This document shows, in pieces, positions 36,878-64,000 of a stretch of DNA of 64,000 nt. Position 1 is the stretch's first letter; every line of letters starts with the position of its first letter. The notes beneath the pieces were generated by a model that was given only the letters and a program-made list of their open reading frames with translations, did not search any database and was not told where the DNA came from. Made by a program: the position numbers and the translations under genes. The stretch covers positions 34,224,001 through 34,288,000 of the forward strand of contig CM060733.1 in NCBI GenBank assembly GCA_030704615.1, written 5' to 3'. This DNA is from Takakia lepidozioides. Lineage: Eukaryota; Plantae; Bryophyta.

Positions 36878-36992
36878 TTTTTTTTTTTGGTTGTATCATG
36901 GTTCAAAACCCTAATTATCTCTTAGGTATTGACTTTTTGATATTCTGTGTAGGGTAAGATCTAAGACAATGGAAGAGATGTAGGAGATAAAG

Positions 36993-41650: not shown

Positions 41651-42699
41651 AGATCATGATATAGAAACTCATGACTAGTTTTCTCGATAATTTTTTCGCT
41701 ATCAGGTTTTACTTGTATAATCTTTATTTTTGTCTTCCGTGTGCATAATGTATTGATTGAATTTCATAAATTGATCATGCAACATTGATGTACATGAACT
41801 CAATTATATATTTCAAACTGAAAATGTTTCAAACATATGATGAGTGTCTTTGTGGTTAGAACACAAAATTGATTGTTACAAAGTTCCAAGTTCAAATCCA
41901 ACATGCATGATTTGTATGAGTTCCCTTGTCATTATAATATCTTACTCTTTCACACACACTAATATACACATTTCAAGACATTATTGGATGGTCATCAAAG
42001 ATATCATTATATACCATGTCAATTTCCTCTCCTCTCGCACTCATATTGAAATGCTATTGAACAACAAATGTACGAAGATCTTAAAACTATTGTATTTCTT
42101 GTAACCTTTCATATCTCCCATTGTTAATATAAGTATCATTTTGAATATATCATTGCCAACATATTAGACTAAACTTAAGATCAAAAATGAAAGAAACATC
42201 TTTTTTCATTGTAGTGTATGTGCATGAAGACATGGGCTGCGAAAATTGGTTATCTGTCCACGCTACCAATTACGGTCACATTTGGTAAACCAAATGTCGT
42301 GCATTGTTTTGAGTTCAAACCCAACATGTATGACCCAATATGACTTCCCTAAAATGCTATTGAGCAACAAATGTATGAATATATTTGAAATTAGATGTTT
42401 CTTTGTAACCTTTCATATCTCACATTGTTAATAATGTCAAATCAAATCTATCACATTGTTAATAGTGTCATTTCAAATCTATCACATTGTCAACAAATGA
42501 AACTAAACTTAATGATTGTCCAAAACGGTACAAATTTTGTTTTTCATTGTAATGTATATATTACAAAATGGATGTCATATAGTTCTAAGTTTAAACCCAA
42601 CATGTATATTGACTTGGTATGATAATATGATAATCCCTTGCATTGACTTGGTAAGAATGAGAGCACACCCTTACAGATCTCTTACAGATACAACATACA

Positions 42700-44895
42700 T
42701 TTTGCACTTTGCACGAGCAACTAACACCCCTACATATATACGTCCTACAAAAATATCATAAGCGTCAAGAGTCATTGTACTCCTAAACTTACAAAACACC
42801 ATTCGTATGATTTTGGTTGGAGTTGAAACTTTACATCAGCAATTAACACCTACAGTCATAGGTCCTACAAAAATACCATGAACAACAAAAATCATTACAC
42901 TAGTGAACTTACAAAACACCATCCGTATTATTTTAGTTAGATTTGAAACTTTATATGAGCAACTAACACCTACATTCATAGATCCTCCCAAAATTTCATG
43001 AACAACAAAAATCGTCACACCAGTGAACTTACAAAACAACATCCGTATGATTTTAGTTGGATTTAAAACTTTACATGAACAACTAACACCTACAGTCATA
43101 GGTCCTACAAAAATACCATGAACAACAAAAATCATTACACTAGTGAACTTACAAAACACCATCCGTATTATTTTAGTTAGATTTGAAACTTTATATGAGC
43201 AACTAACACCTACATTTCCCAAAATTTCATGAACAACAAAAATCGTCACACCAGTGAACTTACAAAACAACATCCGTATGATTTTAGTTGGATTTAAAAC
43301 TTTACATGAGCAACTAACACCTACATTCATAGATCATGGAAAGATTTCATGAACAACAAAAATCATTACACCAGTGAACTTATAAAACACCATTTGTATG
43401 ATTTTAGTTGGATTTAAAACTTTACATGAGCAACTAACACCTATATTCATAGATCATGCAAAGATTTCATGAACAACAAAAATCATTACACCAGTGAACT
43501 TATAAAACACCATTTGTATGATTTTAGTTGGATTTGAAACTTTACATGAGCAACTAACACCTATATTCATAGGTCCTACAAAACTTTCATGAACAATAAA
43601 AATCATCACACCAGTGAACTTACAAAACAACATCCGTATGATTTTAGGTGGTTTTAAACTTTTATATGAGCAACTAACACTTACATTCATAGGTCATGCA
43701 AATATTTCATGAACAAAAAAAATCATTACACCAGTGAACTTATAAAACATCATCTGTATGATTTTAGTTGGATTTAAAACTTTACATGAGCAACTAACAC
43801 CTATATTCATAGGTCATGCAAAGATTTCATGAACAAAAAAAATCATTACACCAGTGAACTTATAAAACACCATCTGTATGATTTTAGTTGGATTTGAAAC
43901 TTTACATGAGCAACTAACACCTATATTCATATGTCATGCAAAGATTTCATGAACAACAAAAATCATTACACCAGTGAACTATAAAAACACCATATGTAGG
44001 ATTTTAGTTGAATTTGAAACTTTACATGAGCAACTAACACCTACATTCATAGGTCCTACAAAACTTTCATGAACAATAAAAATCATTACACCAGTGAACT
44101 TATAAACACACATCCGTATGATTTTAGGTGGTTTTGAAACTTTACATGAGCAACTAACACCTACATTCATAGGTCATGCAAATATTTCATGAACAAAAAA
44201 AATCATTACACCAGTGAACTTATAAAACACCATATGTATGATTTTAGTTGGATTTGAAACTTTACATGAACAACTAACACCTATATTCATAGATCATGCA
44301 AAGATTTCATGAACAACAAAAATCATTACACCAGTGAACTTATAAAACACCATATGTATGATTTTAGTTGAATTTGAAACTTTACATGAGCAACTAACAC
44401 CTACATTCATAGGTCGTACAAAACTTTCATGAACAATAAAAATCATTACACTAGTGAACTTACAAAACTTCATAGATCCTCCCAAAATTTCATAAACAAC
44501 AAAAATCGTCACACCTCTGAACTTACAAAACAACATCCGTATGATTTTAGTTGGATTTGAAACTTTCATGAACAACTAACACTTACATTCATATGTTTTG
44601 TAAAAATTTCATGAACAACAAAAGTCATTACGCGGGTGAACTTACAAAATACCATCCGTGTGATTTCAATTCGATGTGAAACTTTACATGAGCAACTAAC
44701 ACCTACATCCGTATGTCCTGCAAAAATGTCATAAACAACAAAAGTCATCACGGGGTGAACTTACAAAATACCATCCGTGTGATTTCAATTCGATGTGAAA
44801 CTTTACATGAGCAACTAACACCTATATTCGTATGTCCTGCAAAAATGTCATGAACAACAAAAGTCATTACGCGGGTGAACTTACAAAATACCATC
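42700..44895. repeat. Tandem satellite, 120-bp unit, about 18 copies
   Basis: CAACTAACACCTACATTCATAGGTC...CCAGTGAACTTA.AAAACA.CATCCGTATGATTTTAGTTGGATTTGAAACTTTACATGAG repeats with a 120-bp period. Confidence 0.95.
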
Positions 44896-47805
44896 TTACC
44901 ACCTAAGGTGCCTTGATAATGTTTACGTTAAACACTAGGCTATCTTAGTCATTACAAAAGAAGAAACAGCCTTGAGTTCTAAAATGTTAGGTACAAAGTG
45001 ACAGACACTGATATGTTATCAAACTACAATATACACATAGAACAACTTCCAAGACATTGGTTGATAATTTGGATGGTCATCAATGTATTATAGACAATGT
45101 GAATTTTCTCTTCTCTCTTACACATTGAAATGCTATGACCACTACTCTCTCATTCACACTGAAAATGTATGACCATTATTTTTACAATAGTCTTTTTGTA
45201 TATATAATTATCACTTAGATGAATTCATAAGTTGCTTGAGGAATCAATTCAATTGGGCAATTTTACTGAAGTTTATAGCCAGCCTTGTATATTGCTCTTA
45301 ATCACACGCCTCAAGACTCAAAGAATAATGTATAATGCTTATGATCAAGGTTTGGTACGTAGAACTATATGCTTACGAGAAAGATGAAAACAAGATTTTC
45401 AATTTGAGCCCAAATACAAAGTATGTAAATGTATGAACAAAGGATTTTTTTAAACGCTTGAAAATATATACAAAATGTCGAGGAGGGGATTTTTTTAAAA
45501 GAAAAATTTGTACAAGATTTTATACACAAGGGATGGATAAATTGATAATTAAAATACATACAGGGGGTCATAATCACTGTCCAATGCTAAGTACAGAGGT
45601 ATTAAAAAACATGTGTTGATCGCACATGTTATGATGTTTATATGAAGAGTGACCCCCCCGAGTGGTAGATAGGATCTTGGCCTGATTGGTTTGTGAAACA
45701 CCAAACTGTTGAAAATCAGGAAAAACAACAACAGGTTTTTCATGAAGACCCACAGCAGACCATGATTATGGGTTTCATAAGCATGACTCTTAACCTATTG
45801 GGCACCTACTTCAAGATTTATGTTCCTTCCCCTCAGTTGGCAGCATTGCGGGAGGAGCTCAAACATGAGTTTGATGCAAGAATTGTTACTGAGTGTGCAA
45901 ACAAAGTGGATGTGGAGGCCAACCTTAAGTTGCAGCAAGACTTGGAAGACTCTAAAGCTGCCCTACAGCTTGAGAAAGATCCTTGTGAAGTTTCTCATAT
46001 TTCATCTAGCTCTAATCCATCAGGATGAAATTAGGTAGATGTCACCTGAAGTTCAAATATGATTCTAGTGATACACAGTGGATTGATGTTGAGACCATAA
46101 TCTCCGAAGTGACTATGACATTTGAACCATCTTAGAATTTGTACTCTTTAGATCTAAGTGATGTTGTGGCTTTGAATGAGTTCGTGGCTAATGAAAATTA
46201 AATTTTTTCTTGGGTCCGACATTTGACTTATGTATGGAATGTACTTGGTTGTGTACATGCTTTGAAATTTTATAATTATTTAAAATGATAATTTAAAATA
46301 TGGTCTAATTAACTGTTGCAAAAAATAATTATAAAGAAAAATAGGATGTTAGGAAACAAAGGGTTTTACAATATTACCTAAAAGATAGGGTGAAAAAAAG
46401 TTGCAAAATTTTAAAAATATACCTTTGTATGCATGTGATATGGAAAAAATACTTATAGTGACCCCCCAGGCCGGTACTTTACTAGAGTATCCCACTAGGA
46501 ATCAGACACATTGGCCGGTTTTTCCCAACTCTTTTTAAATAAACAATGTAAATCGTATCTAGTTGTCTTGAGCATGTTGTCAGCTGTATCCCTCATATGC
46601 TCAAAATCCAATGTGTCGGGGGTGTAGGTGTACATAGTATCCAAATTATTGTTAATTACATGGAAGTTGGCCTCATTCTGCTAGTCCACATGCTTTGTAA
46701 AATCAAGAAAACGAAGGACTTGGCTTTTAGCCCTATCATCCATAAATTTCGAGTAGGATTAATGGGTTCTCCAACCACATCCAACATTATCATTATACGT
46801 CCGAGAAGCCCCTACTCTATCCAATTTGTGTTGTGTTGCAGCTGCCTTTGCCGCCCGGTTAACCCTCATTCTGGCATTATGCCGCTCCTTAACGCTCAGA
46901 GGTGCAGCCTCCATGTGATGAGGCTCATGCTCATTGTAAGGTTCATCATGCCTTTACCGTGGCCAGGCCAAACGACCCCCCCAATTGCCCGCAGCATATT
47001 CTGATTATTGTGGCTACGGAAAATATTCATCATTCGACTCATGATATTCATGACCCTCACCATACTCATCATACATCTCTGGCTCCTGATAGTGACGGGG
47101 GGAACCTTAATTAGGCGGCGGCATGGGGGCAACATATGAATCATTACCATACTAACCATACCCTCCCTGACGTGGAATGCGTGAAGCAGGTCGTCATTGT
47201 TGGAATTGTGGTGAACGTGGATTCTGATTGAAAACAACAACTTCTGGCACACCTTTGCCAGTGCCGCGTCCTGGGCTGCCTCTCATATGCCCTGGGTGTG
47301 AAGATGTCATTCTCACGTACCAGTACAACAAACCTTCCCACTATTTCAGTACAAATTTTGACATAGGGACAACATGAAACAAACATCATTTCTTGCCCTG
47401 CAGGTAATACAGTTATGAAGCCAACGTTTCCAAAGACATACTGCTCTAGAGAGACAGAATACAAGGCTAAAAAGAGCACAGTCTGATGAGTTTACCTCTC
47501 TATGAAAAGTCTACCTACCCTCGGCACTAAACTCAAATTCTATCTTTGAAACATAAAAGACACAAAGACATTGAAAGAAATTGTCTAGGATATCTGTACC
47601 AGAGGATGACCTTCTTCAGGCCATCCGGGGAACATTGTTCATGCATCTCTGTTCATCAAATTTCAAACTTTCAAGGCTGAGCCTAGACCTGTAGAGTGAG
47701 CCCTCACAAAGGTAATGTCTGTTACCTATTGTTTGCATGTATAGATTCTTCGCAATCATCAAATTACAAAGACTTCACAAATACATTTATCTCTCAATCC
47801 TTCTT

Positions 47806-48943
47806 TGTAGGGCATGTGTGGAGCATGCTTCCAGCCCGCTGAAGCGTGTATTTTCAGGTTGGTGGATGCAAGAAATAAAGCAAAGGGGCTGATTATCTGG
47901 TGGTGAGAGTGGGGCATGTGTGGAGCATGCCTTCAGTCCATTGGGCTTTTGTTTTCAAGCTTTAGAGAACTAGAAGAGAAGGTAAGGGGCTGATCTGCTC
48001 TTATGTGTCCCTCCGACACTTGTAGAGCGTGTTCTGAGTTGGGGTTTCAACCTCAAGCTTAGATAGAGCATGGCTCTTGAAGTGACAGGTGTAGGGGGCT
48101 GGAATAGGCTCTAAGACAGATGTTATGGCCAAGGGAAACACTTGAATGAGTGCTCACAAGGGCTGAAAACCAGCAAGGCTTGGTTGTTTGCCATTGAGTT
48201 TGGTGGCGTGTTTGGGGAGTCTAAGTGAGAAAGAAGGCTTGGTTTGTGGCAACCATCTTCCTCATGGCTTAGGGCTACTATTGGTGGTGTGTGAGAGCCG
48301 AAAGAGCAAGAATACCTTGCTGATTTCTTCACAGCCGCCATAGCTCGGTGCAAAGAAGCCTAGAGTCCAAGAGACATAAACCCTAGCTTGGCGTGGCTAA
48401 ACCCCTTGGAGAAATGGCTAAAATGTCATGAGTGGCCTGTGGGGCTGTGACGGGCTGTGACACGCTGTGATGGGCTGTGAGGGGCTGTGACACACTGTGC
48501 CATGTGGCATGTGGGGCTGTGAGGGGCTGTGACAGACTGTGCCCAGTGGCCTGTGGGGCTGTGACGGGCTGTGAGGGGTTGTGACAAGCTGTGCCCTGTG
48601 GCCTGTGGGGCTGTGACGGGCTATGAGGGGCTGTGACAGGCTGTGCCCAGTGGTCTGTGGGACGGGCTGTGACAGGTTGTGCCTTGTGGCCTGTGGGGCT
48701 GTGACGGGCTATGAGGGGCTGTGACGGGCTGTGACAGGCTGTGGCGGGCTATGCCCAGTGGCCTGTGGGGCTGTGAGGGGCTGTGAGGGGCTGTGACAAG
48801 CTATGCCCTGTGGCCTGTGGGGCTGTGACGGGCTATGAGGGGCTGTGACAGGCTGTGCCCTGTGGCCTGTGGGGCTGTGAGGGGCTGTGAGGGGCTGTGA
48901 CCCCTGTGACCTGTGTAGGGCTGTGACAGGCTGTGGTGGGCTG
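47806..48943 (+). mobile_element. 5' leader fragment of the DNMT-gypsy family (copy C), including a GGGCTGTGA microsatellite-like array at about 48435-48943
   Basis: Reverse-complement homolog of about 60270-61840. Confidence 0.85.
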
Positions 48944-50966
48944 GACCTATCAGGGGGCGTCCCTTTCAGCTGCATACGGATTGGAGCATGCTGGGGCTTG
49001 GAGCGGTGCTCACACAGGTGGATGATGAGGGAAGAGAGTTCGTAGTGGCTTACGCTAGCCGCTCGAACAACGCTGCAGAGGCTAAGTACAGCTCATATGA
49101 GGGAGAGTGCTTAGCTGCAGTGTGGGCCGTGACACACTTTAGGTGCTATCTATACGGCAATATTTTCACCCTTGTCACGGATCACCAGCCACTCAAGTGG
49201 TTGATGGAATCAGACAAGCTTACGGGGAAGCTTGCACGGTGGGCACTTATACTCCAGGAGTATGACTTTCAGGTTGTGCATCGACCGGGTTTGGTTAATC
49301 GGGATGCGGATGGATTGAGTCGCAATCCATGCATGAGCCAGTAGGATGATACTGGAGCTCGGTGGCATGGTGAGACGGACGAGGAGATGGTGCCGGGATG
49401 GCACGCATCTGCATTTTTGTGTATCTTGGCATCGGGAGGTCAGATTGGACCTACAACAGGGATGACTGTAGACGGAGTGTCTGAGGACCCTGAGGCTAGT
49501 GATGAGCTAGGTGGTGCCAGAGATATACATGAGGATTCGACTGTGTTGGACTACCTCCGCATGGGAGACACGGCAGCCATTGTGACTGCCAGGGAGAGGG
49601 ATCGGATCCTGCAACGAGCCAAGAGGTTCAAGTGGGAGGGGATACACCTACTTCGAGTGTGGGAGGATGATCGGGTGAGGATTGTGCCTCACCCCACACA
49701 GCGTGCATGGTTAGTGCGGCATGCCCATGAGGAATTGGGGCATTTTGGAGTGCGACGCACTCACAGTTTACTGCAGGGGCAGTATTGGTGGCGTGGTATG
49801 CATACAGAGGTGCAACAGTTCGTGGCTAGGTGCATGGTGTGTGACAGGGTGCGTGCTTCATTCAACGCCCCTACACCACAGTTGCATCCTTTACCAATCA
49901 TGGGATTGGGCTACATGTAGAGTCTTGACTTCGCAGGACCGTTGCCACTGACTATGCGCCACCGCAGATATGTGTTGGTGATGGTGGAGCACTTCTCCAA
50001 GTGGATTGAGTTGGTTCCATTGCCTGACAAGGCTAGTGAGGGGCTGCGTATGTATTCTTGGATCGTGTGCTTAGCCGATTTGGTGCTCCAGCTGAGGTAC
50101 TCACGGACCAAGGGAGAGAGTTTTTGGGGGAGTTTCAGGCTTTGTGTGATAAAGCCTTGATAGACCACCGCACCACTTCTCGGGATCATCCTGAGGCCGA
50201 TGGCTTAGCAGAGAGAGTTGTTCAGACGGTGAAGAGGGGTTTGCGCAAGTATGGCTTGCAGAAGGGACACCTAGGAGATTGGGATCTTCAGGTTCCTTGG
50301 TTAGCCATGGGCTACGGGTTCAACAAACAAGCATCACTTGCCTCCTTCTCACCATATTTCCTTCTCTTTGGCCGAGAGCCGGATTTGCCTGCAGCCATTC
50401 GTAGGGACACTGCTCAAGTCCTTAACCTTGACGACTCGGACGTGTGGGTACGTGCATGTGATCAGCGTGCAGAGTTGTTCAAGAAAGTCATGGCCATGGC
50501 TTTTGAGAACCTTGCCATTGCACAACACCGTGATACGTTGAGGTATGCCACTATACGTGGTGGAGGATATCGTCCTGGGGTTCGGAGGTTTAGCCCTGGT
50601 GACTATGTTTATTTGCAGCAGACTGCTCCTACGACTCTGGATATTACTGCAGGGCGTGTTATTCTGAGGGTTCGAGAGGTGTTGCCCTCAGGGGTCCTGA
50701 TCTTGGAGGGTCAGGATGGCATGACTTGGAAGGACCATGTGCGTAATTGTGCGCCATGTCACCTTCCCAATGTCGATGACAGAGTTGACCCAAACTTGGC
50801 AGTGGTACCTGCAGGTTTGAGGTGCATGCTCTGTGGGTCTGCCAAAGGAGCAGCCACCATGCTGGTGTGTGATCGATGCTCAAGGGGTTGGCATATGGAA
50901 TGCTTGACACCACCTCTTGAGAAGGTTCCTGACGGAGATTGGTTATGTCCACACTGCTTGGGATAG
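48944..50966 (+). pseudogene. RNase H - integrase - PHD finger of the DNMT-gypsy element (inverted 3' half of copy B)
   Basis: RPFQLHTDWS...YSSYEGECLA...TDHQPL; GHFG...CMVC; SLDFAGP, TDQG, HPEADGLAER. C-terminal C4HC3 PHD: CMLC...CDRC...WHMEC...WLCPHC. Confidence 0.92.
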
Positions 50967-51226
50967 TGGCAGTGGACATGACTGGAGGCAGCTAACAAGA
51001 CATGGGAGGCCAAGCTCATAGGAGTCAATACATGAGATCCCAAGCTCAAGTTCACAGGTTGCAAGACGGCGACTAACGATGGGGCAACTCTTGCACCCGG
51101 CCTCTTGATCTATCGAGTTTGAGTGTAGTAGGGATAGTGGTGGAGGACTTAGTGAGGCTATGGTCACTATCACATCTTGTGGCTACCTGGACTTAGAGGG
51201 ACCTAAGCACCAGCTAGGGGGGCGAT

Positions 51227-51733
51227 TGTGTGGACTAGTGACTGCCATAGTGGGCAGCATAGTGGCAGCCTAGTGACTGACTAGTTGTAGCCTAGTGGTG
51301 GACTAGTGGCTGGACTAGTGGTGGACTAGTGGTATACTAGTGTGTGGTGTGCACATGTGTTGTGTGGTTTTTGGACAACGATGTAGTTGTGTAGCGATAT
51401 GTATGCGCACGACAACTGTCAAGTTATTTTACCACTAGTGTGAAACTAGCTAGGAAATAGCTAGCTTTTACATATTGACATTTGGGATTGGCCCAAGTGT
51501 CAATCCAGGGGTCAAGGCAGATTTAGGCCCTGGAGTGGTTATCTTCACGACAAGCGCGGAAGGCTCATCTTTCTCGAGTTGAGCCTCACCGCGCCTAGCT
51601 ATGGCGCCGTAGTGTGGATTCCCCATGGCGTGGGGTGCACTTGGCTTGACTTGTATTTGAGTGATGAGGTTATATATGCATGAGTTTATGCTTCAGATTT
51701 GTGAGCTCGTGCTTGTATTCTTCTTCTTTATCA
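51227..51733 (+). mobile_element. 3' LTR (507 bp) of the DNMT-gypsy family, followed by a second partial LTR at 51735-51923
   Basis: PPT AGGGGGG at 51216-51222, TG...CA termini, near-identical to 62644-63150 (minus), rich in ACTAGT palindromes. Confidence 0.85.
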
Positions 51734-51923
51734 TTGTGTGGACTAGTGACTGCCATAGTGGGCAGCATAGTGGCAGCCTAGTGACTGACTAGTTGTAGCC
51801 TAGTGGTTGGACTAGTGGCTGGACTAGTGGTGGACTAGTGATATACTAGTGTGTGGTGTGCACATGTGTTGTGTGGTTTTTGGACAGCGATGTAGTTGTG
51901 TAGCGATATGTATGCGCACGACA

Positions 51924-54254
51924 GCTTTATCACACAAAGCCTGAAACTCCCCCAAGAACTCTCTCCCTTGGTCCGTGAGTACCTCAGCTGGAGTACCGAA
52001 TCGGCTAAGCACACGATCCAGGAATGCATACGCAACCCCCTCACTAGCCTTGTCAGGCAATGGAACCAACTCAATCCACTTGGAGAAGTGCTCCACCATC
52101 ACCAACACATATCTGTGGTGACGCATCGTCAGTGGCAAAGGCCCTGCGAAGTCAAGACTCCACTTGTAGCCCAATCCCATGATGGATAAAGGATGCAACT
52201 GTGGTGTAGGGGCGTTGAATGAAGCACGCACCCTGTCACACACCATGCACCTAGCCACGAACTGTTGCACCTCTGTGTGCATACCACGCCACCAATACTG
52301 CCCCTGCAGTAAACTATGAGTGCGTCGCACTCCAAAATGCCCCAACTCTTCATGGGCATGCCGCACTAACCGTACACGTTGTGTTGGGTGAGGCACGATC
52401 CTCACCCGACCATCCTCCCACACTCGAAGCAGGTGTATCCCCTCCCACTTGAACCTCTTGGCTCGTTGTAGGATCCGATCCCTCTCCTTGGCAGTCACAC
52501 TAGCTGCCGTGTCTCCAGTGCGGAGGTAGTCCAACACAACCGAATCCTCATGTATATCTCTGGCACCACCTGGCTCATCACTAGCCTCAGGGTCCTCAGA
52601 CACTCCGTCTACAGTCATCCCTGTTGTAGGTCCAACCTGACCTCCCGATGCCAAGATACACAAAAAGGCAGATGCATGCCATCCCGACACCATCTCCTCG
52701 TCCGTCTCACCATGCCACCGAGCTCCAGTGTCATCATGTTGGCTCGTGCATGGATTGTGACTCAATCCATCCGCATCCCTATTGACCAAACCCGGTCGAT
52801 GCACAACCTGAACATGTCTCTCATGCTCCTCCACCGTAGCACGAGAAGCAATTCCTGTAAGCCTCAGGAACCGTCGTATACGTCGTCTCTCTCCTCTAGT
52901 GACAATAGGTCCAATGTCAGGCTCCCAATTGCCCTTCGTAACTGCAACCTTAAGTCCAGCAGACTTAGAGGTAGAGGATGCGTCCCGTGGTTGTTATGCC
53001 GCAACCTCTTGAGCAGTACTCCATGCCTGCTCAGTCAATGACAAGGCCTCATCCTGCCCCATCATCTCATCCTCAAGGACTTCCTCCACCCGAGAAAAAT
53101 CCCCAGCCTCATCCATCACCGCCACCTTGGCTGCCAACTCCCTCTGAACTTCGAGCACCTCCCACGTGTGCCATGGATGTCTGCACCCCGTGGTCCTCAC
53201 ATGCTCGCCCCCACTCACTGCCTGTACTGTCTCGGTAGGCAGAGAGACCATCAAGGGAAGTGTACTCCGCACTCTGTGTTGCTCAGCCATAGCCAAGCTG
53301 ATAATCCAGGTCAAGCAATTGAGATCCACTGCTTGCCCCAACACCTGACGACGTGATGCCTCAGAAAGAAACGACACCGCCGTGGTACCAATGGTAAAAC
53401 CCATCGCCCGCTCACACTCGTCAGCATTAGGCTCCACTAACTGCTGCAACTGAGCATCCCACAGGAGGCTAGGTCCACTATCCCGGAAAGCATGCGATCC
53501 TGGGAAGCTAAGCAGTGTAGGTATTGTTGCTCGTGGTTGACCCACCCTGTTGACCACTGCCAAAGACAAATAGTCATCGTGTCTCACACGCTGAGACTGC
53601 CTCCCAGTGTCCAAAATGCTATCCACTATGAGGTGTGGGAGTCTTCAACAGAGAATAACCCATCTTAACTATCTACGCAAAGAAAGGGGAGTGGTGGTCA
53701 TCTGTCCAAATGCACGCTTGAGCAGTGCGGGTGGCATCAAGTTAGTCCACCATAGCCGTGGACGATGAGCCCGTGACCCCACTGTAGCTACATCTAGTAA
53801 CACTGCTGACCCAAGCCACGACCGGACTTGATGCACACTGGCCATCACCCTAGCCCAAGAATCGCCCATCAGTGGCACAATCTCCAAGATGTATGCTGGA
53901 GATACAGCTTGATGAAGCTGCAAGTGGCGCAAAACCCATACCATCTCCCAAAACAGACCCGACCTCGAATCTCGCAATCCATTGCCATGCCCGGATGATG
54001 AATGCCCTTGGCAGGGCCCAACCTGCCACTACCAGATCAATGGAGCCAACCCGCTCCAAATCATGCGCCCCCAGCAACGAAATGTCTGCTAGCAAGGCCT
54101 ACTGATATCCACGAACTGCAGACACCGGCAACAACTCAGGGTACCGCTGCACCAACTGAGCAACATGGTGAAGTGAAACGCGTCGTGCAGTCTCATCCCT
54201 CTCCACATACAGCCCCTCACAGCCCCTCACAGCGTGTCACAGCCCATCACAGCC
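51924..54254 (-). pseudogene. Internally deleted DNMT-gypsy copy C: second C5-methyltransferase copy (motif II onward), linker, RNase H end and N-terminal integrase
   Basis: YVERDETARR...DLVVAGW...AHRPRLWWTN...RRQVLGQAV, then jumps to EEHERH|QVVHRPG and integrase up to CDKA. A filler insert of about 65 bp lies at 53640-53705. Confidence 0.88.
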
Positions 54255-55357
54255 ATAGGCGCCGAGGTCAACCTCGCCTTGAGCTCTTGAAAAGCTCGTT
54301 CCTGCTCATCTTCCCACTGCCACTCCTGGTCCACCTTGGTCAGCTTGGTTAGAGCCTTTGCAATGGTACTAAATCCCTTGACAAACCGTCTATAATAGTT
54401 TGTCAACCCCATGAAAGCTCGAACTCGGCTCATATCCGTGGGGCGTGGAATTTGTGCAATGGCCTCTACCTTAGTTTGCTGTACCCCCAATCCTCCAGGA
54501 TATATCATGTGACCCAGATACTCAATCTGGTTGTGGAAAAACTTGCACTTCCCCGGATGCAACTTCAATCCGTGCGCTCTCAAGCGCTCCAATACCACCT
54601 GAAGGTGTCTCTCATGCTCCTCCATCGTAACACTAAAGATGATGATGTCATCTATGTAGCACCGAGCAAAGTCCACCCCTGCTAGAATCCTATCCATGAC
54701 TCTCTGAAACTCTGCAGGAGCATTCTTAAGCCCAAATGGTAAGAACCACCACTGGTATAGGCAATCCTTGCCGTGCTCATTGATCCCCCAGAATGCCGTC
54801 TTCTACTTGTCGGCCTCCTTGATTGGCAACTGGTGATATCCGGATCGTAAATCCAAAGTGCTAAAGGCCTTAGCATGCCCGATGGCATCAAAGATCTCCT
54901 CTGGTGTTGGCATGGCATACTTATCGGACTTGGTCTGACGATTTACAGGCCGGTAATCACCGCACATACGTCTCTCCGTCCAATTGCCATAGACATCCTT
55001 CTTGGCTGGCATCACTGTGGCTGAAGCATACTCTCCACCAGAGAGCTCCACCAAACCTGCCTCCCAGAGATCTTGAGTCCTCATCTGAATCAAAGACCTC
55101 TCCATGTCACTGTATCTATAGGGTCTCCGAAAGATTGGCGTGTCAGTGGCCAACTCAATACAGATCTCTTGACCCTTCAGTGCTCCCAAGTCCTTCAAAC
55201 TGAAGGCAAAGCAATTCCTGTAAGCCCTCAGGAACCGCCGTATACGTCGTCTCTCTCCTCCGGTGACAATGGGTCCAATGTCAGGCTCCCAATTGTCCTC
55301 CGTAACTACAACCTTAAGTCCAGTGGGCTTAGAGGTAGAGGACGCGTCCCGTGGTTG
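54255..55357 (-). pseudogene. Reverse transcriptase of DNMT-gypsy copy B (Chlamyvir/REM1-like RT)
   Basis: PIFRRPYRY, PAKKDVYGNWTERRMCGDYRPVN, LDLRSGYHQ, LPFGLKNAP, YIDDI; ends at LTSAP. One CAG->TAG-type stop at 54803-54805. Confidence 0.92.
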
Positions 55358-56610
55358 CTATGCTGCAACCTCTTGAGCAGTACTCCCTGCCTGCTCAGTC
55401 AATGACAAGACCTCATCCTGCCCCATCATCTCATCATTGAGGACCTCCTCAACCCGAGAAGAATCCCCAACCTCATCTATCACAGCCGCCTTGGCTACCA
55501 ACTCCCTCTGAACCTCGAGCACCTCCCACGTGTGCCATGGATGCATGCACCCCGTGGTCCTCACATGCTCGCCCCCACTCACTGCCTGTACCGTCTCGGT
55601 AGGCAGAGAGACCATTGAGGGAAGTGTACTCCGCACTCTGCATTGCTCAGCCAGAGCCAAGCTGATAATCCAGGTCAAGCAATTGAGATCCATTGCTTGC
55701 CCCAACACTTGACGACGTGATGCCTCAGAAAGAGACGACACCGCCGTGGTACCAGTGGTAAAACCCATTGCCCGCTCACGCTCGTCAGCATTAGGCTCCA
55801 CTAATTGCTGCAACTGAGCATCCCACAGGAGGCCAAGTCCACTATCCCGGAAAGCAGGCGATCCTGGGAAGCTGAGCAGTGTATGTAATGCTACCCGTGG
55901 TTGACCCACCTTGTTGACCACTGCCAAAGGCGAACGGTCATCGTGTCTCACACGCTGAGACTGCCTCCCTGTGTCCAGAATGTTATCCACTGTGAGATGT
56001 GCTGGCCGCTGCACCCCATCAAATGCACGCTTGAGCAGTGCGGGTGGCATCAAGTTAGTCCACCATAGCCGTGGACGATGAGCTCGTGACCCCACTGTAG
56101 CTGCATCTAGCAACACTGCTGACCCAAGCCACGACCGGACTTGATGCACACTGGCCATCACCCTGGCCCAAGAATCGCCCATCAGTGGCACATTCTCCAA
56201 GATGTATGCTGGAGATACAGCTTGATGAAGCTGCAAGTGGCGCAAAACCCGCACCATCTCCCAAAACAGACCCGACCTCGAGTCTCGCAATCCATTGTCA
56301 TGCCCGGCTGATGAATGCCCTTGGCAGGGCCAACCTGCCACTACCAGATCAATGGAGCCAACCCGCTCCAAATCCTGCGCCCCCAGCAACGAAATGTCTG
56401 CTGGCAAGGCCTGCTAATATCCACGAATTGCAGACACCGACAACAACTCAGGGTACCGCTGCACCAACTGAGCAACATGGCGAAGTGAAACGCGTCGTGC
56501 AGTCTCATCCCTCTCCACATACAGGTAACGCCGAACTCGTACACCTTCTTGTAACACAGCAGCCAATCCGGTGCTGATCCCGCCAAACAAGTCCAGAAGA
56601 CAAATGCCTT
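55358..56610 (-). CDS. C5 cytosine DNA methyltransferase domain inside the gypsy polyprotein (one internal stop at 56414-56416)
   Basis: Unpermuted motifs: I LDLFGGISTG, II YVERD, III PADI, IV DLVVAGWPCQGHS (catalytic PC), VI YILENV, VIII AHRPRLWWTN, IX ERERAMGF, X RRQVLGQAM. Confidence 0.9.
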
Positions 56611-59535
56611 CATCCGGATACTGCCACACAATAGGTGTGGTGTCCAATGGAGACAATTGAGGTGGTCCTGGTGCAATCCCCACACTCTCCTCCTCTCCTG
56701 ACGGTACAAAAGCCTCCACCCAGGCTTGTTGCACCCGTCGATCAGCATCCCGCTGCAAATCCTTGCTCGTGCCCCACAATGGAGTCTGAGCAACCATGGT
56801 AGGCAACTCCGCCATACCATACATGTCATCCTGCTCTCCGGAGGTGGTACATCCTCTGAATGAGCATTGCCCTCAAGCAACTCTCTAGGCCAACTCACTG
56901 CCGCTGTGAATGCTGCTAGTGTCGGCATCTTGCCTCGCTGGGCAACCGCAACTCCTCCTATGAACGTCACAGGGAGCTGCACACGCCGGCCCTCCCCTGA
57001 CTGCCATGCAGGCCTATAGGAAGCTGACTCCTCCCAAAAATCCAGGGTGAAGCCCATGGGGTACAACACTGCCCCACCAACCAGGACATCGTATGAGACT
57101 GCGTCTGTCACAATGGCCTTGGCTCGCATCACTGAGCCATCTGTAGGGTGATCCGGCCGTAGTCTGATAGCCAACTCACGCCGTGTCATGCCCGAGCCTG
57201 CTCCGATCCTCCCAGAGACGTTTGTATCTGGAAAGGACAAGGCTCCATATCCGCCTCCGTGAGGCCCAAGCCTGCAATAGCAGCTCTGCCCAGCATCAAT
57301 GGCTGAGCTCCCGAGTCCAACAAGACCCGCAGTGGCCGGTACCTCTTGCCTGCCGGTCCACTCAAACAAAAAATGCCATCCTGGTTGTCTAACATGACAA
57401 CTCCAGGTGTCACCATGGTGCGCTCAATGGCTGGCCTAGCTGGCAGCTCCATCAACCTGGCAGCTGCAGCTTGCCATGGCGCCGCCGTGGCAGTCTTGAC
57501 CCTCAAATCCGAGGATCCCTCCGGCACTACACCTCCCACTATCTCCGCAGAAGATGAAGTAACCTCCCCACTCTTACAGAGTGTAGCTGCCAGCCTGAAC
57601 ACCTCAGCTGGTCTTACCCCCGGCGTCGCAATCATGGTAGCCGAGAAGAATGGAGCCTGGCACACAGATGTGGCCGCTCCTAGCAGCACACTAGCTGCCG
57701 TAGCCTTGGCAACACTAGGTAGTGGTGCTACCCGTGTAGCTCTCCCCAATGGCATAATAACCTCCGCCTCGGTAACAGTCGGGCGAGAACTAGGTGCCAT
57801 GGATGGCGTCGACACTGTCTCCGCCAATGTGAATGACTGAGGAAGCCTAGCCTGACGGCTTGCCTCCCCATGCTGTGATCCAACTCCACCTCTGCACCTC
57901 GTGGCTCAGGAACTCGTGCTGCTCCTCGAGTCACGGCTGCAGCAGACTCCACCTGCACTAGTGGTAGTGCTGCTCCACACATGAATCCCATGCCTCCATA
58001 TCTCCTCCCTCAGGAGCAGGAGGTGGACCATCCGGCCTTAGAGTCGGTACCACCTGGGCTGTAGCCATGGCAGCGAGCCTCTGCTCTAGTTGCTGAAGCC
58101 GGTTGGCCATGCCTTGGTCAACACCCTGACCTCTGCGTCCTTGGCCATGTTGAGCTTGCCCTTGGCGTGCACCTTGTGGCTGGCCACCTCATCCTCTCTG
58201 GGCTGCTCCACCTCATCCCCGACCACCATTGTTCCCTTGGAACTGGCCTGGGCGCAACTCAGGATGCAAACCATAACACTGGGCCTCTCCATGCCCGTGC
58301 TTGCCACAATGCCCACACTGCAATTGTGCAGGCTGTGTATGTGTCCGTCCTTTGCCTCCCTCTGGGCAATCCTTCTTGACATGGGGTCCTCCACATGTCC
58401 AGCACACCACATCCGCCCGTTGTTGGCCAGCAAATGAAGGGAGAGACCCGTGCATCTGAGGTCCTCTCTGCCCTTCCCTGAGCTTCACCTGAGCCCCCTT
58501 GTTGCCTTGAGCACGTTGAGGTAGTGGTTGGCTAGGAGCACCACTACCCCGTGGCGTCTCCTTAGCAAATCCCACCATGACCACTCATTCCTCCACCATG
58601 TTGAGCTCTATCCGCTCTGCCAGCAAAAACACATTTGCTAAGGTGGGTTGGGCCGCTTGTAGGAGAGTTGCATCCCGCACCCTTCTCCTCAGCTCCTTGT
58701 CCAATATCCCATACCAGAATTGGACTGCCTGAGCTTCCGTAACCCCTTGGGTTACATTTATCAAGCGCCTCATGCGAGTGTAAGCCTCCCTCAAGCTCTC
58801 GGTCGGCTTCCGTTGGAACTCTTGCAAGCTCCGCAACTTCTCTGTCCTCACCCCTTGGTAGTTCCCTCTCAACTCTTCGAATAACTCCACAACAGGGTTG
58901 AAGGCAGGCACAGGTACTAGTGCTGGTGCGGTAGTGGCTTGGGTGGACGTCGTAGCTACTGTACCACCAGTCCCACTAGTCCCTCTGCTACTTGCTGAAG
59001 CTGCCGGTGCAGCGGCAGGTGCAGCCACTGCCCTCGTGGCTCTAGTGCCCCTAGTGATGGAGACATAGTCGGGTGACCAGTACATCCTCCACTCCTCGAT
59101 CTCAACCTCATGCCCCCGCCTGAACTCATGGTAATCATCCATAGGCGGCCCCTCAAGGTGCTGAAACAGCCCCTTCCATGCCATGAAAGGCGTAAATAGT
59201 TGTGGATTGCGCATTTGCTGCAAATCACACCAACTATCAAACTCTTGGATAAAATCATCCAACTCGATGGTGCCCACCGCCCCAGAGTACCTTCGTGGCC
59301 CCTTGGTAGCTCCATACATCTCCTCCATTGTGTCCCACAACAATGGCAAATAAACAACTTGCACCGCCGGTATGAGTCCTCCTGATTCACAATCCGAATC
59401 AGAACCTTCCGTGGAAGACACAGGAGGTGAAGGTGGCCTAAACCGCACACCTCGTCTCGTGTACCCACTAGTATCGCTAGTGCTCGCACCGGCACTGTCC
59501 CCAGCAACTAGTGGCACCTCCGTGTTGACACTCAA
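56611..59535 (-). pseudogene. gag, two zinc knuckles and aspartic protease of DNMT-gypsy copy B
   Basis: FQRKPTESLREAYTRMRRL...QFWYGILD (gag); CWTCGGPHVKKDC and CGHCGKHGHGEAQC; VLLDSGAQPLML...YDVLVG (protease). Stops and frameshifts present. Confidence 0.88.
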
Positions 59536-60269
59536 CCGGTCATGAACATGTCCCTAACCCCCTCTCCACAAGGTAACCGGGTAGAGAACCTGTTGCGGCT
59601 TATGGTTTGGAATACTAAGTTCCTAACATAGCCTACACCTGTACGTGCATCCACCGCAAGCACTCCTATGGTTGGCTGGTCATCACCTCCAACCTCACCA
59701 CATGAGAAACAATGATGGTCTGGCTGGTCATCACCCCGACCTCACCATCGACAGCATGCTCTAGGACTGGCCGGTGATCAAATCCGGACCAATCACCTAT
59801 AAAAACAAGCGCCCACACAAAACTAGCATGACGCACAGTCAAGCATGCAGGTATGGAGGGGATCCAAACACAAGAAATCAGAACGACAACTCCCCCACAC
59901 CAAAAACAACTCCACGGTGTTGCTCCTGCAAGGACACCCCAGCCCAAACCCGGATTGACTCTTGCCTCCACCTACGGAAAGGTCTTGGCCTAATGAGAGG
60001 GTGGAAACTACGAGGAAGAGAAGCTAAAGCAATGCCTAACCCCAGCATGCCCTCATCCCAATACTCTTCCTCTCCTCTCTTCCCTCACTTGCATGACCAT
60101 GGGAATATCATGAAGATACTCCTCAAACCGCCCTCCACAAGCTTCAAAATTCGGCCTTCCAGACCACATGCCAGTCCTTAGGCAGTCCACCAGTGCCTCC
60201 ACGAGTCAGCACAGGCCGTCCACAGGTCAACACGGGCCACCACAGACCAGCACAGGCCCACACAGCTCG

Positions 60270-61210
60270 CTGGTCACAGCCGTCACAGTCCCACAGGCCA
60301 CTGGGCACAGCCTGTCACAGCCCCTCATAGCCCGTCACAGCTCGCCACAGCTTGTCACAGCCCGTCACAGCCCCACACAACCCGTCACAGCCCCACAGGC
60401 CACTGGGCACAGCCTGTCACAGCCCCTCACAGCCCGTCACAGCCCGTCACAGCCTCAAAGGCCTCAGGCACGGCCTGTCACAGCCCCTCACAGCCCATCA
60501 CAGCCCCAAAGGCCATGGGCACAGCCTGTCACAGCCCCGCACAGCCCGTCACAGCCCCACAGGCCACTGGCACAACCTGTCACAACCCCTCACAGCCCGT
60601 CACAGCCCCACAGGCCTCAGGCACGGCCTGACACAGCCCGTCACAGCCCGTCACAGCCCCAAGGCCTCAGGCACGGCCTGTCACAGCCCCTCACAGCCCA
60701 TCACAGACTCAAAAGCCTCAGGCACGGCCTGTCACAGCCCCTCACAGCCCATCCACAGCCCCAAAGGCCATGGGCACAGCCCGTCACAGCCCGTCACAGC
60801 CCGTCACAGCCTCAAAGGCCTCAGGCACGGCCTGTCACAGCCCCTAACAGCCCATCACAGCCCCAAAGGCCATGGGCACAGCCCGTCACAGCCCCACAGG
60901 CCACTGGGCACAGCCAGTCACAACCCCGCACAGCCCGTCACAGCCCCACAGGCCACTGGGCACAGCCCGTCACAGCCCGTCACAGCCCCAAAGGCCACGG
61001 CACAGCCCGTCACAGCCCGTCACAGCCCCAAGGCCTCAGGCACGGCCTGTCACAACCCCTCACAGCCCATCACACACGCCCCAAAGGCCATGGGCACAGC
61101 CTGTCACAGCCCCTCACAGCCTCAAAGGCCTCAGGCACGGGCACAGACGGCCTGTCACAGCCCCTCACAGCCCATCACAGCCCCAAAGGCCATGGGCACA
61201 GCCCGTCATA
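60270..61210. repeat. About 940-bp (GTCACAGCCC)-based array in the ~3.1-kb 5' leader of the DNMT-gypsy element
   Basis: Dozens of TCACAGCCC variants with recurring spacers GGCCACTGGG, GGCCTCAGG and GGCCATGGG. Confidence 0.95.
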
Positions 61211-62643
61211 GCCCCATCCATGGCCGCTCTGGCAGTTTAGCCATTTCTCCAAGGGGTTTAGCCACGCCAAGCTAGGGTTTGTGTCTCTTGGACTCTAGGC
61301 TTCTTTCCACCGAGCTATGGCGGCTGTGAGGAAATCAGCAAGGTATTCTTGCTCTTTCGGCTCCCACACACCACCATAGTAGCCCTAAGCCATGAGGTGG
61401 TCGCCACAAACCAAGCCTTCTTTCTCACTTAGCCTCCCAAACACGCCACTAAACTCAATGGCAAACAACCAAGCCCTGCTGGTTCCCAGCCCTTATGAGC
61501 ACTCATCACTCTCCTTGGCCATAGCATCTGTCTTAGAGCCTATTCCAGCCCCCTACACCTGCTGCTTCAAGAGTTGCGCTCCCTTCAAGCTTGAAGTTGA
61601 AACCCCAACTCACATAGGCCCTACAAGTGTTTTTCTTTCACTCCAAGTGGAAACCAGCCCTAGACCTTCCGTTCTAGCTATCTAAAGCTTGAAAACAAGA
61701 GCCTCAATGGGCTGAAGGCATGCTCCACACATGCCCCACTCTCACCATAAGAGAATCAGCTCCTTTGCTTCATTTCTTGCACCCACAAACCTGAAAATAC
61801 AAGCTTCAGCAGGCTGAAAGCATGCTCCACATGCCCTACAGGGAAACCGGCCCCTTCCTTCCTTTCTTGCACTCCCACACCTGAAAGTGCAAGCCTTCAC
61901 CAGGCTGATAGCATGCTCCACACATGCAACCTCTTCACACAAGAGATATCAGCCCCCCTATCTTGGCTCCTTGGTTCCTTGATGCTCTCTAAGACAAGAC
62001 TAAGCACTCCATAGCCTTTGCCAAGCTCCTGAAACCCTAAGGCTTACATTTCCAGCCACAAGACACTTCTCTTGTGGTGCAAGAGCTCTTCTTCCAAGCT
62101 CTGAAACCCTAGGTGCACATTCCATGGCCTTGCCGCACCTCTTAGCTCATGTTCCAGCCCTGCTCTCGCCATGACAAGAGCCCTCTCAATGCTGAAGCTT
62201 GAGATTGAAACCCAATCTCACCATACTCCACAAAGTGCACTGATTTGCCCCAAGCCAAATCAGCCCTTTCGCTTGGTCTTGCAATCCTTCACACAATGAA
62301 AGCTCGCATTCCCAAGTCCAGTTCTCAGCTTTGCCACCAAAGCCACTATAACCTGCTCTTGACTGGTCCTCTTCCCAATCGTGCTTGTTCATGCATGTAC
62401 ACAATCTGAAACCATCAAGGTGCTCTGGAATTACCTGCAGTATGGTGCTTTCATCTCTGAAGCTGAAGATCGAATGCCAAGGTTTACCACCTCGTAACCC
62501 ACATCGCCTCCGCTTCTAACAACCAAGAGCTCCACGGTGCTCCTTGCATAACAACTTGATTTCTCTCATTCTCAAGCAAAAACCACAAGTGCTACAACTA
62601 ACTCGTATCTAGCACTCATAGATACGAGCTGATCTTTCTCGAG

Positions 62644-63150
62644 TGATAAAGAAGAAGAATACAAGCACGAGCTCACAAATCTGAAGCATAAACTCATGCA
62701 TATATAACCTCATCACTCAAATACAAGTCAAACCAAGTGCACCCCACGCCATGGGGAATCCACACTACGGCGCCATAGCTAGGCGCGGTGAGGCTCAACT
62801 CGAGAAAGATGAGCCTTCCGCGCTTGCCGTGAAGATAACCACTCCAGGGCCTAAATCTGCCTTGACCCCTGGATTGACACTTGGGCCAATCCCAAATGTC
62901 AATATGTAAAAGCTAGCTATTTCCTAGCTAGTTTCACACTAGTGGTAAAATAACTTGACAGTTGTCGTGTGCATACATATCGCTACACAACTACATCGCT
63001 GTCCAAAACCACACAACACATGTGCACGCCACACACTAGTATATTACTAGTCCACCACTAGTCCAGCCACTAGTCCAACCACTAGGCTACAACTAGTCAG
63101 TCACTAGGCTGTCACTATGCTGCCCACTATGGCAGTCACTAGTCCACACA
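62644..63150 (-). mobile_element. LTR shared by two tandem DNMT-gypsy copies (3' LTR of copy A and 5' LTR of copy B)
   Basis: On the minus strand it is preceded by PHD, 3' UTR and PPT (AGGGGGG-CGAT) and followed by the PBS-position sequence CTCGAGAAAGAT, the leader and gag. Confidence 0.88.
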
Positions 63151-63410
63151 ATCGCCCCCCTAGCTAGTGCTTAGGTCCCTCTAAGTCCAGGTAGACACAA
63201 GATGTGATAGTGACCATAGCCTCACTAAGTCCTCCACCACTATCCCTACTACACTCAAACTCGATAGATCAAGAGGCCGAGTGCAAGAGTTGCCCCATCG
63301 TTAGTCGCCGTCTTGCAACCTGTGAACTTGAGCTTGGGATCTCATGTATTGACTCCTATGAGCTTGGCCTCCCATGTCTTGTTAGCTGCCTCCAGTCATG
63401 TCCACTGCCA

Positions 63411-64000
63411 CTATCCCAAGCAGTGTGGACATAACCAATCTCCATCAGGAACCCTCTCAAGAGGTGGTGTCAAGCATCCCATGTGCCAACCTCTTGAGCA
63501 TCGATCACACACCAGCATAGTGGCGGCACCACGAGCATGCCCACATAGCATGCAACGCAATCCTGCAGGTACCACTGCAAGGTTGGGATCTATCATCCCA
63601 TCCACATGTGGAAGGTGACATGGCGCACAATTACGCACATGGTCCTTCCATACCATGTCATCTCGACCCTTCAGAATCAACACTCCTGAAGACAACACCT
63701 CCATGACCCTTAGAATCACACGTCCTGTTGTGACATCCAAGGTCGTAGACGTTGTCTGCTGCAGATACACAGAGTCCCCAGGGTGGAAACGCCAAACACC
63801 TGGCCGATATCCCCCTCCACGTATAGTGACATACCTCAATGTGTCTCGGTGTTGGGCAATAGCAAGATTCTCAAAAGCCATAGGCATGACTCTCTTGAAC
63901 AACTCTGCCTGCTGGGCACATGCTTGTGTCTACACATCCGGATCATCAAGGTTGAGGACTACTGCAGCCTCCTTGCGAGTAGACGCAGGCCAATCTGACT
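63411..64000 (-). pseudogene. Integrase C-terminus plus PHD finger of upstream copy A (runs off the window)
   Basis: AFENLAIAQHRDTLRY...CAPCHLP...CMLCGHARGAATMLVCDRCSRGWHMGCLTPPLERVPDGDWLCPHCLG. Confidence 0.9.

Follow-up and report, generated by a model that had tools for sequence, protein, structure and literature searches.

Why a transposon should carry an enzyme of the very class that silences it is a question that has stood since 2018, the known carriers being algae that are hard to manipulate. The same question is raised by a 64,000-nt stretch of DNA from contig CM060733.1 (the window, a term used throughout for the full stretch), in which positions 47806-64000 contain Ty3/gypsy retrotransposon sequences encoding a C5 cytosine DNA methyltransferase (DNMT). 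The answer considered here, held with slightly more confidence than doubt, is that the window contains a decayed copy of a bryophyte-grade Ty3/gypsy family in which the first open reading frame (ORF1) ends in a DNMT3-like enzyme followed by a conserved stop codon, and that this enzyme, made in Gag-like amounts, would methylate the element's own complementary DNA (cDNA) within the particle.

Translation of the minus strand between positions 51800 and 59700 revealed Gag, the protease motif VLLDSGA (57306-57326), the methyltransferase and reverse transcriptase (RT) bearing a YIDD motif (54647-54658), in that order. The methyltransferase presents the motifs DLFGG (56579-56593), GWPCQ (56321-56335), ENV (56189-56197), AHRPRLWWTN (56054-56083) and RRQVLG (55700-55717). 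As such, all of the motifs listed in an earlier reading of this DNA, based on the letters alone (the sequence-only reading), are present and in the order claimed, and the match to PF00145 which that reading proposed to seek was obtained (E 6.2e-13; 49.3 bits, as compared to a cut-off of 22). When a profile built from 65 sequences was searched against the PDB, the best solved structure was DNMT3A (E 6.4e-23), followed by DNMT3C and DNMT3B, with DRM enzymes (1.9e-9 to 1.4e-6) and HhaI (2.7e-6) scoring more weakly than did DNMT3A. The structure predicted with X at the stop codon private to this copy (predicted local distance difference test score, 91.5; predicted TM score, 0.91) was matched by Foldseek to DNMT3 proteins in all rows listed, the top match being DNMT3A 6f57 (TM 0.72/0.84). 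The domain is approximately 22% identical to DNMT3A, and no PWWP or ADD match was detected. Profile search and predicted fold thus assign the enzyme to the DNMT3 class, nearer to DNMT3 than to DRM, DNMT1 or bacterial enzymes, in agreement with the earlier description of a Ty3/gypsy family with an unpermuted DNMT3-like domain. Identification of the enzyme as a DRM or a bacterial Dcm was rejected, given how the Pfam result, profile scores and fold match all favour DNMT3.

Related sequences were obtained in a JGI scan that confirmed 296 stretches and returned 80 loci (given below, where needed, as L-numbers). The catalytic Cys was kept in 70 of the 72 loci covering this site, as was the Glu of ENV in 69 of 75. 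At the position of the internal stop of the window methyltransferase (56414-56416), Gln is encoded in 55 of 66 loci and a stop in four, such that this stop is private to the window. The second methyltransferase copy in the window is interrupted elsewhere (54099-54101), confirming that the internal stops differ between copies. In comparisons of the window with seven related loci, the proportion of synonymous differences in the DNMT was saturated (pS 0.72-0.80), while that of nonsynonymous differences (pN) was 0.17-0.36, with a pN of 0.13-0.23 for RT. For the pair L055 and L058, the ratio of nonsynonymous to synonymous substitution rates (dN/dS) was 0.12 for DNMT and 0.04 for RT; for close, decayed copies, the median values were 0.57 and 0.45, respectively (156 pairs). 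These patterns, drawn from the 28 sequences that passed the length filter, indicate that the DNMT domain is under purifying selection. The dN/dS near 1 considered in the sequence-only reading was not seen.

That reading treated the coding region as a single open polyprotein, and here it failed. In both window copies, translation halts at one shared codon after the DNMT (TAG CAA CCA, with the stop at 55358-55360, and TAA CAA CCA, with the stop at 52994-52996), beyond which RT stays in frame. Of the 80 loci, 63 were used to count such junctions, with the 17 in which no RT start lies beside the DNMT being left out. An in-frame stop was found in 58 (43 TAG and 15 TAA, representing 50 distinct junctions), followed by CAR-YY or its C-to-T decayed form. 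The remaining five comprise one frameshifted locus that nonetheless carries the motif, two that differ and two, L041 and L045, with TAC at the junction, where the DNMT-RT frame would accordingly have been fused. At any of 642 other codon positions, a stop was seen in at most 29% of the loci, a control on the basis of which the shared stop was rejected as having arisen through CHG decay of a Gln codon. Kept in relatives, the junction stop missed by the sequence-only reading is thus a family feature that parts Gag-protease-DNMT from RT, rather than decay.

The sequences flanking this stop vary by lineage, with TAG-CAR-YY remaining constant. A single lineage, grouping with a Sphagnum protein, accounts for most of the loci and has the junction CAA CCC ATG, while CAA CCA, CAA CTA, CAG TTA and CAA TCA appear amid unrelated flanks in other lineages. 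Of 37 long proteins containing DNMT only, 33 end 71-166 residues past the domain, the corresponding tail in the window being 90 residues long. The window junction corresponds exactly to UAG-CAR-YYA, described in the part of PMC3542737 compared as the type I readthrough motif of tobacco mosaic virus, and retroelements need approximately 20 Gag per Pol (PMC2194720, in the part compared). The conserved stop and its context together suggest that Gag-protease-DNMT is likely the major product and RT-RNase H-integrase-PHD a minor readthrough product. The conserved stop would also offer a quantitative clue, namely that this branch was selected for much more methyltransferase than polymerase. Relatives with DNMT and RT in a single ORF also exist (P0196, P0283 and P0423).

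The region spanning 47806-64000 is a cluster of pieces from three to four family members. It opens with a plus-strand copy that lacks gag through RT (47806-51923), followed by an integrase piece in reverse orientation. The truncated second methyltransferase comes next, then the main copy, which extends from gag to RT, and lastly the 3' end of a further unit in tandem. The second methyltransferase copy reported in the sequence-only reading is indeed present and 92-96% identical to the first, but it is a rearranged, RT-deleted piece without motif I, and not a whole element. Similar joints that skip RT occur in contigs of public sequencing runs, such that this copy probably comes from a deleted subfamily. 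The features of the cluster, together with a host gene elsewhere in the window, are as follows.

47806-48918, plus strand: 5' leader remnant of an internally deleted family member, 84% identical to 60731-61840 inverted, with an array of 10-bp units at about 48410-48977.
48919-50966, plus strand: RNase H, integrase (H2C2 and a D,D-x34-E core) and C-terminal PHD finger, the frame being broken by stops and a frameshift (Pfam RT_RNaseH 1.7e-37, Integrase_H2C2 4.8e-16, PHD 3.1e-11).
51213-51225, plus strand: candidate polypurine tract abutting repeat B1, an identical motif preceding B1 in relatives.
51226-51414, plus strand: repeat B1, 3' end GACA, 98% identical to B2.
51409-51421, plus strand: B/A junction GACA-nn-TGTC, a putative integrase attachment site, kept in three other lineages.
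51417-51733, plus strand: repeat A2, with a TGTC start and CA end and a self-primer segment at 51567-51579.
51734-51923, plus strand: repeat B2, closing the 3' B-A-B end, as seen by repeat comparison.
51924-52812, minus strand: integrase fragment lying head-to-head with the plus-strand copy, 94.6% identical to 49268-50155 inverted (Pfam rve 8.3e-13).
52846-54212, minus strand: second methyltransferase copy, N-terminally truncated, and RT start; an RT-deleted derivative with the junction stop at 52994-52996.
54255-55357, minus strand: start of ORF2 and RT, broken off at 54255, with one private stop at 54803-54805 (Pfam RVT_1 6.4e-32 when read with X at stops).
55352-55360, minus strand: conserved in-frame stop TAG, then CAA CCA, in the exact readthrough context.
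55631-56632, minus strand: DNMT3-like C5 cytosine methyltransferase, motifs I-X unpermuted, one private stop.
57306-57326, minus strand: aspartic protease active-site motif VLLDSGA, matched by Pfam Asp_protease_2 at the same motif in relatives.
58276-59328, minus strand: Gag, frameshifted, with two zinc-knuckle-like motifs (58276-58317 and 58366-58404).
59329-62631, minus strand: long 5' leader with a tandem array of 10-bp units at about 60180-61230, found by repeat search.
62632-62644, minus strand: putative primer-binding site, the reverse complement of a 13-nt segment within repeat A and not complementary to a tRNA.
62645-62960, minus strand: repeat A, common to the main copy and the upstream tandem unit, with the self-primer segment at 62798-62810.
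62963-63164, minus strand: repeat B (62963-63151) and polypurine tract (63152-63164) of the upstream unit, as seen by repeat comparison.
63414-64000, minus strand: integrase C-terminus and PHD finger of the upstream tandem unit, which extends past the window edge (Pfam PHD 7.7e-11).
354-1517, minus strand: host gene, outside the element, placing the DNA among land plants.

The match of Gag to Pfam Retrotrans_gag (7e-4) lies under the family cut-off, and Gag is 54-77% identical to gag stretches of related loci, falling to 24-27% in the most distant. The Ty3/gypsy domain order Gag-protease-RT-RNase H-integrase is present as pieces in the window and in full in loci such as L001, L027, L039, L055 and L074.

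The sequence-only reading called the element a long terminal repeat (LTR) retrotransposon. This stands with respect to the domain order, TG..CA ends and 4-bp target duplications, but not with respect to the repeats, which are split direct repeats rather than ordinary LTRs. Instead of two complete direct LTRs, one at each end, the element has the arrangement A-coding-B-A-B, a permuted form of an LTR built of B and A. In the window, the 3' end of the plus-strand copy reads B1-A2-B2, with A beginning with TGTC, B ending with GACA and the purine tract lying ahead of B1. The B/A joint GACA-nn-TGTC is kept in the window, in Sphagnum-like loci, in L055 and in L058. Among loci matched with the L070 repeats, six end in B-A-B, 13 in a single B and two run into the contig end. 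The A/B joint is exact in five of six loci; in the sixth, L071, filler and a polypurine tract remnant are found there, as end-joining would leave. Because the copies in the window are truncated, target duplications were read from relatives, where a 4-bp duplication is perfect in five of the eight loci with both ends (representing seven insertions) and shows one mismatch in the other three. Together, TGTC..GACA ends, a 4-bp duplication and a DDE integrase are those of a Ty3/gypsy element. Assignment to DIRS, elements with a tyrosine recombinase and no target duplication, was rejected on the basis of the rve integrase and target duplications. The usual integrase spacing is 35, as was counted by eye in an unrelated Gypsy element in the window. 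In the DNMT family, D-x34-E was found in 60 of the 61 proteins with a matched motif (82 having been examined) and in all 11 locus matches. Split repeats and target duplications suggest that insertion of a circular intermediate is routine for a DDE integrase. Programs that search for LTRs as matched terminal repeats may miss such copies. At L013 (6012-6126) and L018 (6002-6116), the position upstream of gag at which repeat A would be expected is instead taken by repeat B in inverted orientation, possibly reflecting an aberrant or auto-integration product.

The segment directly following repeat A is complementary to the middle of A over 13 nt in the window, 12 nt in L076 and 14 nt in L055. These segments differ in sequence among the three lineages, and in each case such complementarity was seen in 0 of 2000 shuffles. 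TATA-like boxes lie approximately 25 nt upstream of the primer segment in L070 and L055, with none being clear in the window.

As to the host, the sequence-only reading considered the window to be land-plant DNA. The gene at 354-1517, the one clear host gene in the window, supports this assignment and makes a moss the most likely host, its best named matches being from mosses (45-53%), namely, Sphagnum (53%), Physcomitrium (46-49%) and Ceratodon (45%), followed by angiosperms (29-36%); no named alga appears among the 36 matches, many of which are unnamed. The family is very repetitive, as reflected in the 60,421 contig pieces from one public run that fall on 5.4 kb of the element, although contig depth is not a measure of copy number. 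Depth is alike over DNMT and RT and the order gag-protease-DNMT-RT-RNase H-integrase-PHD recurs in many of the 80 loci, in line with the earlier claim that the domain was amplified with the element. A protein library clustered at 50% identity yielded 242 clusters at E 1e-30 or better, while none of 32 pattern matches in IMG/VR was confirmed. Named DNMT relatives come from Sphagnum, Calypogeia, Marchantia and Riccia (up to approximately 70% identity) and, more distantly, from Closterium and Monoraphidium; no named Klebsormidium protein is among the named matches listed. In Marchantia, six frames of 1248-1281 residues all contain GWPCQ and ENV, with five containing the protease motif. In Marchantia polymorpha, uninterrupted Gag-protease-DNMT frames carry hypothetical-gene annotation, rendering the question of why such an enzyme is carried testable in a model plant. 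Mp_4g09160 and Mp_5g06330 are examples of intact Marchantia copies. Copies can also be miscounted as host DNMT genes.

Three architectures were distinguished among the relatives. In the first, that of the window branch, DNMT is followed by the stop and then RT. In the second, DNMT precedes RT in one frame, as seen in unnamed proteins and in gene models from Closterium, in which a stop may be hidden. In the third, DNMT lies between RNase H and integrase, with 35 full examples, including Scenedesmus KAF8056149.1. P0289 / P0418 (Scenedesmus sp. PABB004) and 33 similar proteins combine a DNMT in this position with a PHD finger, and no description of such chlorophyte-type elements was found in the literature searched. 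In a quick DNMT tree (56 rows), a split with an SH-aLRT of 90 sets the stop branch apart, and the chlorophyte type is supported at 99; in the RT tree (48 rows), support is 99/92 for the chlorophyte type, 95/88 for the window with Marchantia and Sphagnum-like sequences and 79/71 for the whole stop branch. These groupings fit long co-inheritance of the two domains. With neither host DNMT3 nor Klebsormidium rows included to serve as a root, the trees do not show a single capture. Related enzymes in other positions in Closterium and chlorophyte elements point to an old green-plant lineage. A broader proposal, tentative and on balance more doubtful than credible, is that an ancient green-plant Ty3/gypsy lineage, represented in chlorophytes, zygnematophytes, liverworts and mosses, has retained a DNMT3 from a time preceding the origin of land plants, and that in the land-plant branch a leaky stop raised the enzyme to Gag levels, with many molecules per particle methylating a circular cDNA that is integrated through an internal site. 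Were this so, bryophytes, including Marchantia, would contain an unrecognised source of de novo methylation, intact copies of which are annotated as ordinary genes.

In the cycle proposed for the window family, a few percent of ribosomes would pass the stop to generate RT and integrase, giving a DNMT:RT ratio of approximately 20:1 by the general Gag:Pol rule, a step considered quite probable. With similarly good confidence, the RNA would start inside repeat A and its 5' end would serve as the primer for reverse transcription, in the manner of the Tf1/Tcn1 group. The linear cDNA, B-A-coding-B-A, would be closed to a two-repeat circle that integrase opens at the internal GACA-nn-TGTC, yielding A-coding-B-A-B and a 4-bp duplication; this, with B and A together acting as the functional LTR, is the simplest account of the ends and a step favoured less strongly. 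Finally, protease would free the DNMT, whose high local concentration would lead to de novo methylation of the cDNA at CG and perhaps CHH, such that a new copy arrives marked like host heterochromatin, a proposal for which the chances seem about even. Moss DNMT3b is described as catalyzing de novo methylation at CG and CHH in the part of PMC6453930 compared.

Several observations weigh against this scheme. Self-methylation of the cDNA is itself reasoned from sequence, and the isolated DNMT of the Klebsormidium nitens element KnitGypsy-Dnmt3 gave no methylation in yeast, a result its authors deemed inconclusive (PMC5890265, in the text compared). No compositional trace of self-methylation was seen, with CG observed/expected ratios of 0.51 for the element, 0.50 for the window and 0.38 for the unrelated Gypsy element, and differences between copies are spread over all three contexts, again offering no such sign. 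In the predicted fold of the window leader RNA, the primer segment paired with a stretch other than the primer-binding site. The A-B-A-coding-B isomer predicted by the circle model was found at none of 19 5' ends, and there are the 13 loci that end in a single B; collapse of short reads could account for both. At the junction, full CAR-YYA is exact in the window but in only seven of 58 cases, while the CAA CCC of the commonest lineage (47 of 58) departs from the readthrough consensus at +6, with the adjoining ATG allowing for reinitiation. The junction filter, moreover, demanded YAR-YY, with stops also being listed unfiltered. Finally, Tca2 has a conserved stop for which no measurable readthrough was seen in S. 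cerevisiae (PMC2194720, in the part compared).

The main rival to cDNA methylation, judged unlikely and yet deserving serious attention, is that the enzyme does have catalytic activity but targets chromatin within the nucleus, at the insertion site or on other copies, either guided by the PHD finger or free after cleavage, thereby serving as a self-imposed brake or altering the host methylome. Gag-level synthesis would provide far more enzyme than two cDNAs require, the integrase bears a PHD finger and the DNMT adjoins integrase in chlorophyte-type relatives; indeed, de Mendoza et al. put forward both ideas (PMC5890265, in the text compared). In the window branch, however, the DNMT belongs to ORF1 and is separated from integrase by the stop, and the K. 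nitens methylome is described in the same text as ordinary and plant-like.

Less probable still is that the stop is real but that expression of pol depends on splicing, reinitiation or an internal promoter rather than on readthrough, in which case DNMT would remain at Gag levels. The ATG that directly follows CAA CCC in nearly all of the 47 junctions would suit this explanation, as would Marchantia and Sphagnum gene models that skip the junction, although these are predictions. Such an ATG is, however, absent from the window, L012, L060, L053, L054, L055 and L058, while ORF2 is in frame with ORF1 across lineages and CAR-YY is constant despite changing flanks.

A shade further down in likelihood comes the proposal that the domain is kept for binding or structure, be it cDNA or RNA binding, particle assembly or RNA methylation, and not for DNA methylation. 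Gag-level amounts fit a structural role, and inactivity of the Klebsormidium domain in yeast and lack of excess CG loss are as expected of it. Against this, the catalytic residues of PC, ENV and motif VIII are kept across lineages with saturated synonymous sites, and related DIRS-borne DNMT3s methylate CG in yeast (PMC5890265, in the text compared). That a one-off capture or an assembly artefact joined a host methyltransferase to a retrotransposon, as the scrambled local region and chimeric second copy might suggest, is already refuted for practical purposes by the same domain order in many of the 80 loci and in named bryophyte proteins, the like contig depth over DNMT and RT, the grouping of the same architectures in DNMT and RT trees and purifying selection on the domain. 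Methylation of the element's own cDNA by a Gag-level enzyme therefore remains the reading preferred here.

The remainder of the window contains other repeats. Positions 23875-33867 (plus strand) correspond to the unrelated, near-complete Ty3/gypsy element noted above, with paired LTRs 94-99% identical in matched parts, no methyltransferase and an extra frame ahead of gag (24813-25511). Its LTRs and integrase tail contain arrays of a 10-bp unit with an ACAGCC core (24005-24304, 31638-31957 and 33292-33602), with the same kind of unit also being found in the leader arrays of the DNMT element (48410-48977 and 60280-61214) and, in part, at the breakpoint at 54209-54254. An AT-rich tandem array of approximately 17 units of 120 bp spans 42630-44896. 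Decayed LINE-like frames and another Gypsy remnant, the latter between direct repeats 6.5 kb apart, are also present (15348-18846, minus strand; 4063-4764 and 6870-13915, plus strand), with a zf-RVT match at 4063-4764. At 36984-41087 (plus strand), four long frames gave no Pfam match. One of these resembles a P-element/THAP9-type transposase by language-model features (scores 0.91-0.93), with TNP-like RNase H and GTP-binding families seen on 15-90% of cluster members. This is no more than a lead; if it holds, P-like transposons in a land plant would merit further attention.

Among known systems, retrotransposons with a C5 methyltransferase include SymbioDIRS-Dnmt3 and SymbioLINE-Dnmt of Symbiodinium and the EpiLTRs, as described in the portions of those reports compared. 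SymbioDIRS-Dnmt3, for which CG activity was shown, has split repeats like those of the window family; DIRS elements, however, use a tyrosine recombinase, whereas a DDE integrase and 4-bp duplications characterize the window family. EpiLTR DNMTs are, unlike the window enzyme, sister to DNMT4 and accompanied by DAM and chromodomains (bioRxiv 10.64898/2026.05.21.726589, in the part compared). Host DNMT3 proteins (DNMT3A/B and moss PpDNMT3b; PMC6453930, in the part compared) have the same fold and motif order, while the window enzyme is embedded in a Gag polyprotein. The junction resembles the stops of tobacco mosaic virus (type I), murine leukemia virus gag-pol and SIRE1 pol-env in presenting an in-frame UAG and CAR-YYA upstream of a polymerase frame, yet here protease and methyltransferase precede the stop, such that the abundant product is predicted to be an enzyme and not Gag alone.

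In terms of priming, Tf1/Sushi and Tcn1 also have a primer-binding site complementary to their own terminal repeat and use no tRNA (PMC6317226, in the part compared). These are chromoviruses with ordinary LTRs, whereas the window family has a PHD finger with no chromodomain match, split repeats and D-x34-E; neither PHD nor methyltransferase occurs in the main text of that paper, which describes REXdb. Chlamydomonas is known to contain Gypsy elements with a PHD finger (PMC9940879 and PMC6673714, in the parts compared). Foamy-virus integrase, which cuts palindromic 2-LTR circle junctions, offers a precedent for a DDE integrase acting at a CA..TG circle joint (PMC1180852, in the part compared). 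That enzyme cuts at the joint formed by end-to-end ligation, whereas the window family would use an internal repeat site, with the ligated joint staying in the insert.

The sequence-only reading further held the family to be undescribed in land plants. In the literature searched, outside which lay most subscription journals, theses and Repbase reports, neither a land-plant description nor a split-repeat Gypsy element with PHD was found. Two later papers treat DNMT-bearing elements as streptophyte and name no land-plant cases in the parts compared (PMC12344493; bioRxiv 10.64898/2026.05.21.726589), and nothing on such elements appears in the compared portions of PMC2774666 and bioRxiv 10.1101/363937. 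In Mpmet mutants, a large number of transposons are de-repressed (bioRxiv 10.1101/363937, in the part compared). The layout, however, is that of the published Klebsormidium element, such that the kind has been described. According to the text of PMC5890265 compared, KnitGypsy-Dnmt3 of K. nitens has a DNMT3 in its Pol ORF, DIRS-like repeats and purifying selection; like the window family, it combines Ty3/gypsy domains with an unpermuted DNMT3-related domain, A-coding-B-A-B ends and purifying selection on the DNMT. No mention is made in that text of target duplications, self-priming, readthrough or PHD. The two differ in that the DNMT of KnitGypsy-Dnmt3 shares one ORF with RT and RNase H, according to the part of the peer-review file compared, while in the window family the conserved stop lies between them, and in that the latter has a land-plant host and very high abundance. 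The window element is thus probably a land-plant relative of KnitGypsy-Dnmt3 with one tested difference, the placing of the DNMT outside the RT frame, and most likely represents a land-plant branch of a described kind rather than a new system.

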